Notes: a model not told the origin generated them from the sequence alone. A DNA stretch of 13,872 nt from a virus (IMGVR_UViG_2874915312_000001), one strand, 5' to 3'; counted from the stretch's first letter, positions 609 to 5,469 are shown. A program made the numbers and translations.

Positions 609-795
609 TTACCCCGCTTTCTTATGGGGCATGCATGGGACACTTTCAGATAGTCTTCTGTTAAGAAGTTCTATCTGTTCGTGATTGTTGTCTTTCATCC
701 ATGCTCCGTAAACATTGAATACCATTTGTGCGTTTGTGTGGCCCATCTGGCTTGCGATAAAACTAGGATTAGCTCCTGCGGCAAGTGACCAGCAT
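609..795 (-). pseudogene. int: phage tyrosine integrase, C-terminal ~60 codons only
   Basis: ORF 609..821 (-) reads ...CWSLAAGANPSFIASQMGHTNAQMVFNVYGAWMKDNN..., the C-terminal box of lambda-type integrases with the probable catalytic Tyr. Codons above 795 fall inside the IS911 terminal repeat, so the 5' part of int is missing. Confidence 0.65.
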
Positions 796-867
796 TGAAG
801 TGGCACACTGAATTTGGCCACCTGAACAGAGGTGATATGCTCACCTCAGAACAACACAGGTGCTCCA

Positions 868-1170
868 ATGAAAAAAAGAAATTTTAGCGCAGAGTTTAAA
901 CGCGAATCCGCTCAACTGGTTGTTGACCAGAAATACACGGTGGCAGATGCCGCCAAAGCTATGGATGTTGGCCTTTCCACAATGACAAGATGGGTCAAAC
1001 AACTGCGTGATGAGCGTCAGGGCAAAACACCAAAAGCCTCCCCCATTACCCCGGAACAAATTGAAATCCGTGAGCTCAGGAAAAAGCTACAACGCATTGA
1101 AATGGAGAATGAAATATTAAAAAAGGCTACCGCGCTCTTGATGTCAGACTCCCTGAACAGTTCTCGATAA
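868..1170 (+). CDS. IS911 OrfA (HTH/leucine-zipper transposase subunit)
   Basis: ATG at 868; protein [53 protein letters not shown]... matches IS911 OrfA as I remember it. Confidence 0.85.
1119..1125 (+). promoter_or_regulatory. programmed -1 ribosomal frameshift heptamer A AAA AAG
   Basis: A AAA AAG sits in the orfA frame (codons AAA 1120-1122, AAG 1123-1125). The orfB frame is open from 1125 (1197-1125=72, divisible by 3). Confidence 0.6.
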
Positions 1171-1196
1171 TCGGGAAACTCAGAGCGCATTATCCT

Positions 1197-2036
1197 GTGG
1201 TCACACTCTGCCATGTGTTCGGGGTTCATCGCAGCAGCTACAGATACTGGAAAAACCGTCCTGAAAAACCAGACGGCAGACGGGCTGTATTACGTAGTCA
1301 GGTACTTGAGCTACATGGCATCAGCCACGGTTCGGCCGGAGCAAGAAGCATCGCCACAATGGCAACCCGGAGAGGCTACCAGATGGGACGCTGGCTTGCT
1401 GGCAGGCTCATGAAAGAGCTGGGGCTGGTCAGCTGTCAGCAGCCGACTCACCGGTATAAACGTGGTGGTCATGAACATGTTGCTATCCCTAACTACCTTG
1501 AAAGGCAGTTCGCCGTGACCGAGCCAAATCAGGTGTGGTGCGGTGATGTGACCTATATCTGGACGGGTAAGCGCTGGGCGTACCTCGCCGTTGTTCTCGA
1601 CCTGTTCGCAAGAAAACCAGTGGGCTGGGCCATGTCGTTCTCGCCGGACAGCAGGCTCACCATGAAAGCGCTGGAAATGGCATGGGAAACCCGTGGTAAG
1701 CCCGGCGGGGTGATGTTCCACAGCGATCAGGGCAGTCATTATACGAGCAGGCAGTTCCGGCAGTTATTGTGGCGATACCAGATCAGACAGAGTATGAGCC
1801 GGCGCGGAAACTGCTGGGATAACAGCCCAATGGAACGCTTCTTCAGGAGTCTGAAGAACGAATGGATGCCGGTGGTGGGTTACGTAAGCTTCAGCGAGGC
1901 AGCTCACGCCATAACGGACTATATCGTTGGATATTACAGCGCACTAAGACCGCACGAATATAACGGTGGGTTACCCCCAAACGAATCGGAAAATCGATAC
2001 TGGAAAAACTCTAACTCGGTGGCCAGTTTTTGTTGA
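1197..2036 (+). CDS. IS911 OrfB (DDE catalytic domain; made as OrfAB fusion by -1 frameshift)
   Basis: 279-aa ORF with IS3-family DDE-type content (...[10 protein letters not shown]...[10 protein letters not shown]...[12 protein letters not shown]...). Its frame is -1 relative to orfA and open back to the slippery site. Confidence 0.85.
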
Positions 2037-2044
2037 CCACTTCA

Positions 2045-2386
2045 CTCTGAACTTGCGTTTCTGCTTACAGCGTAGCCTTAGCTCCTTACGAAGACGTGCC
2101 AGTCGGTCACGACCAACGATGATGCCATTCTCTGCCAGCTCCGTCTGGAGCCGCCGGGTTCCATATGTTTCGCGAGTGCGGATATGTGCCACCTTAATCT
2201 CCAGTTTTAGCCGCTCATCACTTTGTTTTCTGTCTGAGGGTTCATGCTGTACCCAGTTGTAATAACCGCTCCTGGATACACCAAATACCAGACACATCGC
2301 TTCAATGGGAAATTGTTGTCGCCATTGTTCGATTAACGCGTATTTTTCAGCGACTCCTGTGCAAAATACGCTGTTGCTTTTTTTAA
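2045..2386 (-). pseudogene. IS600-like OrfB, 5' fragment only
   Basis: ORF 1971..2297 (-) reads ...SRSGYYNWVQHEPSDRKQSDERLKLEIKVAHIRTRETYGTRRLQ..., an IS3-family OrfB N-terminal region. The A7 slippery run near 2378-2386 marks the likely frameshift site. The ORF runs into the IS911 repeat at 2044. Confidence 0.55.
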
Positions 2387-2707: not shown

Positions 2708-2789
2708 GTAAGCGCCCCATCAGCGACGTCTTGTGAAAATTGTCCTGTCTGGCAACAATCGCGCCCATCTATATTGATGGACACGAACG

Positions 2790-3464
2790 ATGAATTCCCA
2801 GACAACAAAAGATATTCCCTGCTTCCGTTCTTATTTGCCTGATGCCCTGCGTTTAAGATTTGAAGATAAACTGACCATCCGGGCCATCGCTCAGCGTCTG
2901 GGTCTCAGTCATTCCACAATACATACGCTTTTTCAGCGATTTCTTGCATCCGGTATCGCATGGCCATTGCCCGATTCAGTTTCATTCGCTCAACTTGACG
3001 CCATCCTTTATGCCAACAGAAAGAAGGAATTAACAGAGCCTCAAATCAGAGAAGGCTCATGGCGAAAAGAACGGCGAACCAACTATAGCCGTGAATTTAA
3101 GGTCCGTCTGGCTAAGCAGGCATTACAGCCTGGGGCTGTTGTTGCCCGGATCGCCAGAGAACACGATATCAATGATAACCTGCTGTTTAAATGGAAAAGC
3201 CAGTACGAGGACGGCTTACTGAGCGATGATGACATACAGGAATGCATGCCTGTCCCGGTGGCACTGACTGATACGCCGGAGCCGACCAGACCAGTTACAA
3301 ATCCCTTCTGGCGTAACAAGCATGATGAGCGCCCTGAGGGGGCTCCCGGAAACGTCCCACGGTGCGAGCTGCATCTTAAATCAGGTGTGGTAAAACTGTT
3401 TGACCCTCTCACTCCGGAACTGTTACGGGCGCTAATCCGCGAAATGAAAGGGGGTATCCGATGA
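2790..3464 (+). CDS. IS66-family accessory protein (TnpA-like, HTH)
   Basis: 224-aa ORF; its central region ...NYSREFKVRLAKQALQPGAVVARIAREHDINDNLLFKWKSQYEDG... is a transposase-type HTH. First ORF of the IS66 unit. Confidence 0.7.
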   Translation: MNSQTTKDIPCFRSYLPDALRLRFEDKLTIRAIAQRLGLSHSTIHTLFQRFLASGIAWPLPDSVSFAQLDAILYANRKKELTEPQIREGSWRKERRTNYSREFKVRLAKQALQPGAVVARIAREHDINDNLLFKWKSQYEDGLLSDDDIQECMPVPVALTDTPEPTRPVTNPFWRNKHDERPEGAPGNVPRCELHLKSGVVKLFDPLTPELLRALIREMKGGIR

Positions 3465-3808
3465 TAACGCTGCCGACCGGTACCAAAATCTGGATCATCG
3501 CTGGCATCACAGATATGCGTTGTGGCTTCAATGGCCTGGCTTCGAAGGTGCAGAACATGCTGAAAGATGACCCGTTCTCCGGGCATATCTTCGTCTTCCG
3601 GGGCCGCAGTGGCAAAATGGTGAAAATACTGTGGGCCGATCGTGACGGGTTATGCCTGTTCGCCAAACGCCTGGAACGGGGCCGCTTCGTCTGGCCGGTG
3701 ACCCGGGAAGGGAAAGTGCACCTGACGCCAGCTCAGTTATCCATGCTACTGGAGGGGATCGCGTGGCAACATCCCAAACGGACAGAACGGCCTGGCATCC
3801 GGATATAA
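3461..3808 (+). CDS. IS66-family TnpB
   Basis: 115-aa ORF MITLPTGTKIWIIAGITDMRCGFNGLASKVQNMLKDDPFSGHIFVFRGRSGKMVKILWADRDGLCLFAKRLERGRFVWP..., the conserved IS66 Orf2. Its start overlaps the stop of the preceding ORF. Confidence 0.8.
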   Translation: MITLPTGTKIWIIAGITDMRCGFNGLASKVQNMLKDDPFSGHIFVFRGRSGKMVKILWADRDGLCLFAKRLERGRFVWPVTREGKVHLTPAQLSMLLEGIAWQHPKRTERPGIRI

Positions 3809-3827
3809 CCCGTGATAAAACAAGGGA

Positions 3828-5429
3828 ATGAACAATGAACTCCCCGATGATATTGAGCTGCTTAAAGCCATGTTGCGTAAGCAACAGAGTCGGCTTCGAC
3901 AGTATGCCTGTCAGGTCGCGGGCTATGAGCAGGAAATTGAACGGCTGAAAGCGCAACTCGACAGGTTGCGTCGTATGTTGTTCGGCCAGAGTTCAGAGAA
4001 AAAGCGTCATAAGCTTGAAAATCAGATCCGACAGGCAGAAAAACGACTGTCGGAACTGGAAAACCGGCTGAACACAGCCAGAAATCTTCTGGAAGATGCA
4101 TCGTCAGTCACAGATTCACCTGACACCAGTCCCCCGTCAGAAAACCCGATCGCCAGTAAGCCTGAATTCCCGGGACGAAAATCTTCACGAAAACCGCTGC
4201 CGGCAGAACTTCCCCGGGAGACACATCGCCTTCTGCCTGCTGAAACCAGTTGCCCGGCCTGTGGAGGTGTTCTGAAAGAAATGGGGGAAACAATCTCAGA
4301 GCAACTGGATATCATTAATACCGCCTTTAAAGTTATCGAAACCATACGTCCCAAACTGGCCTGTAGCCGGTGTGATGTCATCGTTCAGGCACCACTTCCT
4401 CCTAAACCGATCGAACGCGGTTATGCCAGTGCAGGGTTACTTGCACGGATCCTGGTCAGCAAATATATGGAACATATCCCTTTATATCGCCAGTCAGAAA
4501 TATACGCGCGACAGGGCGTGGAGCTGAGCCGTAATACCATGGTGCGCTGGGTATCAGAAATGGCAGACAAACTCCGTCCTCTGTATATAGCGCTGAATGA
4601 CTATGTTCTGGAGGCAGGAAAGGTGCACGCAGATGACACTCCGGTGAAAGTACTGGCCCCGGGGAACGGAAAGACGAAAACGGGTCGTCTGTGGGTATAC
4701 GTCAGGGATGATCGTAATGCGGGTTCATCCCTGCCGGCAGCCGTCTGGTTCGCGTATTCGGCAGATCGCAAAGGAGAACATCCGCAGCTCCACCTGGCAA
4801 AGTATCAGGGCGTACTGCAGGCTGATGCCTATGCAGGTTATAACGTACTGTACGAAACGGGCCGGGTGAAGGAAGCCGGGTGCCTGGCCCACGCCCGCCG
4901 AAAAATCCATGACGAGGATGTGCGCCGTCCGACAGAAATGACTCAGGAAGCGCTCAGACGGATAGCAGAGTTATACGACATAGAAGCGGAGATACGTGGC
5001 AGTCCGGCAGAGGAACGGCTTGCAGTCAGAAAAGCCAGAAGCGTCCAGTTGATGCAGTCGTTGTACGACTGGATACAGTTGCAGAGGAAAACGCTGTCGA
5101 AACATGCGGAGATGGCGAAGGCGTTCGACTATATCCTGAATCACTGGAATGCGCTGAACGAGTTCTGTCGTGACGGCTGGGTGGAAATAGACAACAACAT
5201 CGGTGAAAACGCGTTACGATCGGTGGCGGTTGGAAGAAAAAATTATCTCTTTTTCGGCTCAGACAAGGGAGGAGAAAGTGCGGCGATCATCTACAGTCTG
5301 CTGGTCACCTGCAAACAGAACGAAGTGGAGCCGGAGGACTGGTTGCGCGAAGTGATCGAGAAGCTCAATGACTGGCCGTCGAACCAAGTGCATGAACTGC
5401 TGCCCTGGAACTTCTCGTCTGTAAAATAA
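3828..5429 (+). CDS. IS66-family transposase TnpC
   Basis: 533-aa ORF with an N-terminal coiled coil, a Cys cluster (CPACGG...CSRCD) and a DDE-type core, as in IS66 transposases. Confidence 0.85.
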
Positions 5430-5461
5430 TCCTTACGCTACGTACTTCTCGGGGCGCTTAC

Positions 5462-5469
5462 GGTTGAAT
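5462..5469. repeat. 8-bp target site duplication GGTTGAAT (right copy)
   Basis: Identical to 2700-2707 and directly abuts the IS66 right end. Confidence 0.6.

Follow-up and report, generated by a model that had tools for sequence, protein, structure and literature searches.

In the long-term evolution experiment (LTEE), 14 of 83 insertion sequence (IS) events were deletions adjacent to an element that left no target duplication, and all 14 involved IS150 (PMC11708052). IS911 has been reported to follow a “targeted” pathway, through which it comes to adjoin the ends of other IS (PMC9333248). Simple insertions of IS66-family elements such as ISSfl3 carry tnpA, tnpB and tnpC between GTAAGCG termini and are flanked by a perfect 8-bp duplication, while in Escherichia coli VL7S7 inverted IS911 copies bound an inverted block of prophage genes. 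The locus examined here, the viral stretch IMGVR_UViG_2874915312_000001 (13,872 nt, hereafter the window), resembles each of these in part. At the left end of a defective lambdoid prophage in mlrA, a complete IS911, a truncated IS600 and a complete ISSfl3 form a rearrangement scar, for which we tentatively favor a four-step history combining an inversion between IS600 copies with an IS911-adjacent deletion. The entire window is 100% identical to the finished chromosome CP026803.1 of Shigella flexneri 89-141, which is serotype Y according to a published table (PMC9455713). The same prophage occupies the same mlrA site in genomes of E. coli and enteroinvasive E. coli (EIEC) at 97–100% identity, and these served as references (L numbers below designate the loci fetched). 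The features of the scar and of the phage block beside it are as follows.

609–795, minus strand: 3' remnant of the prophage tyrosine integrase gene (int), consisting of the last 61 codons and the stop codon
796–2044, plus strand: complete IS911 (IS3 family), 1249 bp; left terminal inverted repeat (IRL) 796–831, orfA 868–1170, A6G 1119–1125, right terminal inverted repeat (IRR) 2009–2044
2045–2699, minus strand: IS600 remnant (IS3 family), running from nt 655 back to nt 1 with the IRL tip at 2699; orfA 2333–2635 intact, orfB truncated
2700–2707, no strand: left copy of the ISSfl3 target duplication, GGTTGAAT, which adjoins the IS600 IRL tip without a gap
2708–5461, plus strand: complete ISSfl3 (IS66 family), 2754 bp; tnpA 2790–3464, tnpB 3461–3808, tnpC 3828–5429
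5462–5469, no strand: right copy of the ISSfl3 target duplication, GGTTGAAT, a perfect 8-bp repeat of the left copy
5462–5495, minus strand: start of a 209-amino-acid (aa) phage open reading frame (ORF), here orf209; first 11 codons, ATG at 5495–5493; IS600 insertion site; phrog_1085, a family of unknown function
5462–13505, minus strand: phage block orf209'-S-four tRNAs-Q (deleted)-ninH-helicase (nonsense)-...-Rha', inverted relative to int in comparison with the canonical prophage
13506–13872, plus strand: second IS600, running off the window and present as a full copy in the source genome; IRL toward the phage block, flanks ACC and GCA, no duplication

The first of the three elements to be considered is IS911, whose termini are exact. 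Its ends are 36-bp terminal inverted repeats (TGAAGTGG...CCACTTCA) and the IRL and IRR of the window copy align with each other. End-to-end alignments (1–1249) were obtained with eleven other full-length copies whose flanks differ, and its right end is identical to the published 36-bp IRR oligonucleotide (PMC2909936). The orfA frame is open, an A AAA AAG slippery site is present at 1119–1125, and the -1 frame (orfB) is open from 1113 to 2036. The transposase scores 302 bits against the NCBIfam model transpos_IS3 (cutoff 160) and OrfB is identical at 278 of 279 positions to that of a RefSeq-annotated IS911 copy. The element is complete and apparently functional. It is flanked by CAT on the left (...GCAT) and CTC on the right (CTCT...), with no 3- or 4-bp target duplication, so the description in an earlier note on this DNA, of a complete IS911 lacking a duplication between int and the OrfB part of IS600, was accurate. 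What the missing duplication argues against is a simple insertion; the identity of the element as IS911 is not affected. An intact IS911 with exact termini and no duplication therefore marks a rearrangement joint. At another locus (L002 17578–17600), a 13-nt partial IS911 IRL tip (TGAAGTGGCACAC) directly precedes a full IS911.

The two flanks of IS911 belong to different genes. On the left, the int remnant matches PHROG integrase families, and as far as base 795 nine E. coli genomes have the same int 3' end at 100% identity. Beyond that base, native int reads GCATAGG... in E. coli VL7S7, and the full-length Int of a relative (L001; 428 aa) continues from ...HTYA into CWSLAAG. On the right, the IS600 remnant shares 99.85% identity with full-length IS600 over nt 1–655 and retains its terminus, TGAGGTAGCC, with the IRL tip at 2699 set by nine differently flanked copies. 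Nucleotides 656–1264 of the 1264 bp of a complete IS600 are missing: native IS600 continues after nt 655 with CGACTACG, where the window has the IRR of IS911. A 4-bp microhomology (TTCA) at this joint, to which a BLAST overhang had hinted, was rejected, as native IS600 reads GTCG there.

Unlike IS911, ISSfl3 possesses its target duplication, and the earlier assignment of this IS66-family element as a clean insertion with an 8-bp duplication at the IS600 tip is borne out. Its ends (GTAAGCGCCCC...GGGGCGCTTAC) carry the GTAAGCG termini, and tnpA, tnpB and tnpC are all intact, scoring above cutoff against the NCBIfam models for IS66 TnpA (NF038385, 286 bits), TnpB (NF033819, 125 bits) and transposase (NF033517, 467 bits). 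A RefSeq-annotated ISSfl3 with an 8-bp duplication is 99.7% identical to the window copy, and an independent copy in E. coli FDAARGOS_943 has the same termini with a duplication of its own, GGGAAGTC. Thus, ISSfl3 is an intact simple insertion. What sets it apart from simple IS66-family insertions is a target octamer placed immediately beside the tip of another IS. The native phage sequence at the target is GATTGAAT, which differs from GGTTGAAT by one substitution; since the substitution is present in both copies of the duplication, it is older than the ISSfl3 insertion. A 3-nt deletion in the target was considered for the same difference and set aside, a single A-to-G single-nucleotide polymorphism (SNP) being the simpler reading. 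Immediately to the left of several ISSfl3 copies, the sequence reads GAAT or GAATT (window 2700–2707; L033 3197–3205; L034 3197–3206), perhaps owing to a weak preference of the element for such targets.

To the right of ISSfl3, the phage sequence had been described as a remnant of R, which it is not: the bases in question are the start of orf209, which in relatives lies between holin S and lysozyme R (aligned with L008 2767–2798, L001 and L002). A further point concerns the orientation of the genes that follow. In six E. coli relatives (O121 201805972, CFSAN029787, FDAARGOS_944, RMDEC364, VL46 and VL40), the mlrA-int and S-Q-replication parts of the prophage lie on opposite strands, which is the lambda order, and the relatives L006, L008 and L010 share this canonical order; in the window the two parts lie on the same strand. 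It is therefore established that the block from 5462 to 13505 is inverted relative to int. The IS911 joint cannot be the product of one deletion alone, and its history must include at least one inversion. Both ends of the block are IS600 copies with their IRLs facing inward, an arrangement that, together with the missing duplication of the right-hand copy, is characteristic of recombination between IS600 copies in inverted orientation. The triplet GGT, found beside the IRL of both IS600 copies and of the IS600 at L004, was examined as a sign of replicative inversion and rejected: the geometry does not fit, other triplets occur elsewhere and the sequences are native at both sites. Beyond the block, the second IS600 has truncated Rha' on one side and yehI' on the other, and the genes from yehI to yehQ come next in the inverted direction (window 13503–13872; L007 10933–20309), which suggests that another large inversion mediated by IS600 extended into the yeh region.

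Recombination between IS copies is a known source of deletions and inversions in Shigella and EIEC genomes, and VL7S7 provides a direct parallel to the arrangement in the window. As in the window, its mlrA-int and S-Q matches lie on the same strand, and the inverted IS911 copies that bound its S-Q-immunity block, one of them located in orf209, are in the same prophage family, involve the same IS, strike orf209 26 bp from the Shigella IS600 site and place the inverted S-Q block beside the int side. VL7S7 differs in that it has kept both IS911 copies, a complete int and the early-left genes, whereas the window has one IS911, a cut int and a block bounded by IS600. IS911 lies in orf209 at this distance in both VL7S7 and O121 201805972 (L001 6192–7470; L015 6911–8160; L002 5001–6275), and the same orf209 base is joined to the IS911 IRL in VL7S7 but to the IRR in O121.

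Based upon this anatomy, a history of four steps can be proposed. Firstly, one IS600 would have inserted after codon 11 of orf209 and another in the Rha gene. Secondly, these inverted copies would have recombined, flipping the block from Rha' to orf209' and moving the lysis end with its IS600 toward the int side. Thirdly, the transposase of an IS911 resident in int would have joined the right end of the element to the CTC at IS600 nt 653–655, with loss of the 5' part of int, the early-left and immunity DNA and IS600 nt 656–1264; such an IS-adjacent deletion would by its nature leave a complete IS911 with unrelated flanks and no duplication. Fourthly, ISSfl3 would have inserted into the 8 bp abutting the IS600 tip, some time after the IS600 insertion. 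The sequences directly show the anatomy, the exact termini, which duplications are present and which absent, the inverted orientation compared with relatives, and the occurrence of the left IS911 joint and the right ISSfl3 joint across the lineage. What we infer is the order of these events, the loss of the DNA as opposed to its relocation, and the origin of the IS911 joint in transposase activity instead of host recombination.

Several observations are consistent with this history: 1) both IS911 termini are exact and complete, the flanks come from different genes, and no duplication is present, with one flank old and the other new, 2) both IS600 IRLs point toward the block, as inversion between IS600 copies requires, and the right-hand IS600 lacks a duplication, 3) the right IS911 joint, discussed below, looks like a target selected by transposase, and 4) three chimeric ORFs that an inversion should have created at its reciprocal joints are absent from a collection of 15 billion proteins that holds the gene calls of this genome, a result limited to exact matches. 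The predicted chimeras join int5' to the IS911 IRR (378 aa), the IS911 IRL to IS600 from nt 656 onward (193–213 aa) and Rha5' to the IS600 IRR (95–128 aa). A deletion at the IS911 joint is likely, and the absence of these ORFs tilts weakly in its favor. Adjacent deletions made by IS3-family elements are frequent. In the LTEE, the IS150 deletions (PMC11708052) have the same properties as the window joint, in that the intact IS is kept, one flank is original, the other was formerly distant, and a duplication is lacking. They differ from it in two respects. In the canonical prophage, the flanks of the window IS911 do not lie in a colinear order; colinearity is obtained only by assuming that an inversion came first. 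The LTEE also supplies a time series and an ancestor, whereas the window has neither to show a resident IS911 before the loss.

A number of results weigh against this history. Among the genomes examined, there was no intermediate having IS911 in int with a CAT duplication, no genome with IS600 in orf209 but not the other elements, and no lineage genome combining the inverted block with an intact int. Furthermore, the putative loss of the 5' part of int and the early-left region is addressed only indirectly, by negative exact-ORF look-ups, which are prone to false negatives. Guessed ORFs across the joints that the window itself possesses (70, 144 and 108 aa) were not on record either; the gene caller had used other starts or made no call. 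The sequence also does not separate a deletion made by transposase from recombination between two direct IS911 copies, and a single inversion needs an equal number of events. Lastly, the right IS911 joint, discussed below, resembles an IS end over its first 10 bases only, with 12 of 36 positions matching over the whole inverted repeat.

The alternative that fares best is host RecA-dependent recombination between two direct copies of IS911, one in int with the duplication CAT and the other at IS600 nt 653–655 with the duplication CTC. The crossover would have excised the intervening DNA and fused the two copies into one hybrid IS911, the prior IS600 inversion and the ISSfl3 insertion being as in the four-step history. 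Although we consider it somewhat unlikely, recombination of this type yields exactly the observed anatomy of an intact IS with exact ends and unrelated flanks, and several other points accord with it: an IS3-family element (IS629) is known to have inserted at the CTC site in IS600, recombination between identical IS is among the standard causes of missing duplications (PMC11708052), Shigella has many IS911 copies, and the ORFs of the reciprocal joints are absent. Of the 10 IS911 copies examined in S. flexneri CP034931.1, half have 3–4 bp duplications and half have none. It requires one event more than an adjacent deletion, however, and neither parental insertion was found in 5,426 E. coli genomes or in the loci fetched. 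The window IS911 has one private SNP and no mosaic pattern, in a test that has no power here.

A second alternative is a single inversion with no deletion, in which an IS911 in int recombined with an inverted IS911 located inside the IS600 in orf209 of a canonical-order prophage. This would strip the duplications and flip the whole block of int5', early, immunity, replication, Q and S genes, leaving the 5' part of int and the early-left region further to the right, beside a reciprocal IS911 and IS600 nt 656–1264. Its attraction is that the missing duplication and the inverted orientation would arise in one step, and VL7S7 exhibits exactly such an IS911 event in the same prophage. Nor does it cost more events: the adjacent-deletion and two-copy histories both need a prior inversion between IS600 copies, and all three come to an approximately equal event count. 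Against it are the absence of the three chimeric products described above, which as an exact-sequence look-up is weak, and the orientation of the two IS600 IRLs, both facing the block, which would have to be a coincidence. We therefore regard a single inversion as improbable. Finally, an assembly artefact, with repeats mis-joined in an IS-rich genome, can be given very little credence, for although IS are usual sites of misassembly and drafts of the lineage break inside these particular elements, the joint from mlrA through int' into IS911 (795/796) is read through in four other independent assemblies of the lineage, the joint of ISSfl3 with orf209' is read through in the draft AFGX01000041, and the window is identical to a finished chromosome. 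The internal IS911/IS600 and IS600/ISSfl3 joints were seen in the finished chromosome only.

From these comparisons, the earlier proposal that an IS-adjacent deletion shaped the locus stands in so far as IS911 marks a rearrangement joint, but a single deletion is insufficient and an inversion is needed. The missing duplication, which had been taken to indicate such a deletion, does not discriminate between it and two-copy recombination or inversion. The scar had been called nested; the elements do stand side by side, but none lies inside another, and the term is loose.

The right IS911 joint bears on target choice, in particular through the following feature.

2048–2057, plus strand: possible inverted-repeat-like target, TGAACTTGCG, beginning 3 bp past the IS911 IRR tip, with 7 of its 10 bases identical to the IS911 IRL tip

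A match of this quality has a background frequency of 0.45%. The left IS911 joint has no such mimic of the IRL, with 0–1 of 10 positions matching. Loot and colleagues reportedly described, in 2002, targeted transposition of IS911 to positions beside sequences similar to its own ends (cited in PMC9333248 and PMC2909936). In the window, the IRR tip is followed by 3 bp and then by TGAACTTGCG, which would mimic an IRR-IRL junction; unlike in that pathway, the similarity covers only 10 bases, the left joint is without a mimic, and the comparison is one of sequence alone. The right joint looks as if chosen by transposase, which is a lead and not a finding, because the similarity to the IRL tip ends after ten bases. 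In E. coli 2014C-4423 (L004 201–1505), IS629 is inserted in IS600 at the identical CTC triplet with a CTC duplication, and this triplet may be an insertion hot spot. One of the IS911 copies of CP034931.1 is also a complete insertion in IS600, located elsewhere in the element and having a 4-bp duplication. It is conceivable, if doubtful, that IS600 nt 653–655 (CTC, then TGAAC...) constitute a recurrent target of IS3-family elements that mimics an IS end at junction spacing. If true, the window would hold a natural footprint of the targeted IS911 pathway, which has so far been documented in the laboratory, and ISSfl3, which adjoins the IS600 tip through its target octamer, might be another instance of targeting to an IS end.

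The broader importance of the locus is small. It is a case of ordinary IS-driven genome decay involving three known IS in a published genome, with nothing new among them, and IS copies lacking duplications at rearrangement joints are routine in Shigella, such that the value lies mostly in careful annotation. As a cautionary case, it illustrates that a missing duplication alone is no sign of an adjacent deletion; here, gene orientation revealed a hidden inversion. In addition, the coincidence that one IS600 triplet adjoins two different IS3-family elements is a small lead on target choice. None of the four joints of the window occurs in any of the 5,426 complete E. coli genomes, and look-ups of the Q and MlrA fragments returned the same lineage only, with no intermediates. 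Pattern scans for the int/IS911 and IS911/IS600 joints and for the predicted reciprocal joint gave no matches in viral, GTDB-representative and metagenome collections, but the positive controls were missed too, so the lineage is absent from these collections and the scans carry no weight.

The chromosomal boundary and the first intact phage gene frame the scar on either side.

1–584, minus strand: mlrA (yehV), with the prophage attachment in place of its 5' end; left boundary on the chromosomal side, covered by the mlrA annotation of E. coli VL7S7 and others
5499–5714, minus strand: class II holin S, the nearest phage gene still intact to the right of the scar, with PHROG holin matches and RefSeq annotation in relatives

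Within the lineage of the window, mlrA (window 1–534; L016 17765–18416) is split into products of 177 and 52 aa, and this curli regulator is probably a pseudogene there. The prophage has decayed as well. The Q antiterminator has suffered a 124-bp deletion between two 11-bp repeats, ATATAACCATC (window 6614–6624 compared with L008 3917–4051), which causes a frameshift, and late-gene activation is thus predicted to be lost. A CAG-to-TAG nonsense codon at 8299–8301 interrupts the DnaB-like replicative helicase, and the 327-aa product of the split gene is found on nine contigs only, all of this lineage. With int cut, Q deleted, the helicase interrupted and the lysis genes beyond S gone from the joint, the prophage is, to judge from its genes, dead.

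Additional observations concern the remainder of the phage block and its relatives. The variable region 12217–13507 is common to the three Shigella-type relatives L006, L008 and L010. A pair consisting of a Gp49/HigB-like toxin and a helix-turn-helix (HTH) antitoxin lies near the immunity region at 12219–12882 and is likewise shared by these three, while E. coli L001 and L002 have other genes. The draft AFGY01000037 diverges from the window to the left of base 6006, where it matches another lambdoid prophage of CP034931.1 (L012 1–671 compared with L025 6119–6790); this could be due to recombination between prophages or to misassembly of the draft. Finally, one of the four phage tRNAs between Q and S (6241–6317) is called tRNA-Met (CAT) by ARAGORN, whereas RefSeq annotates the identical gene of relatives as tRNA-Ile.

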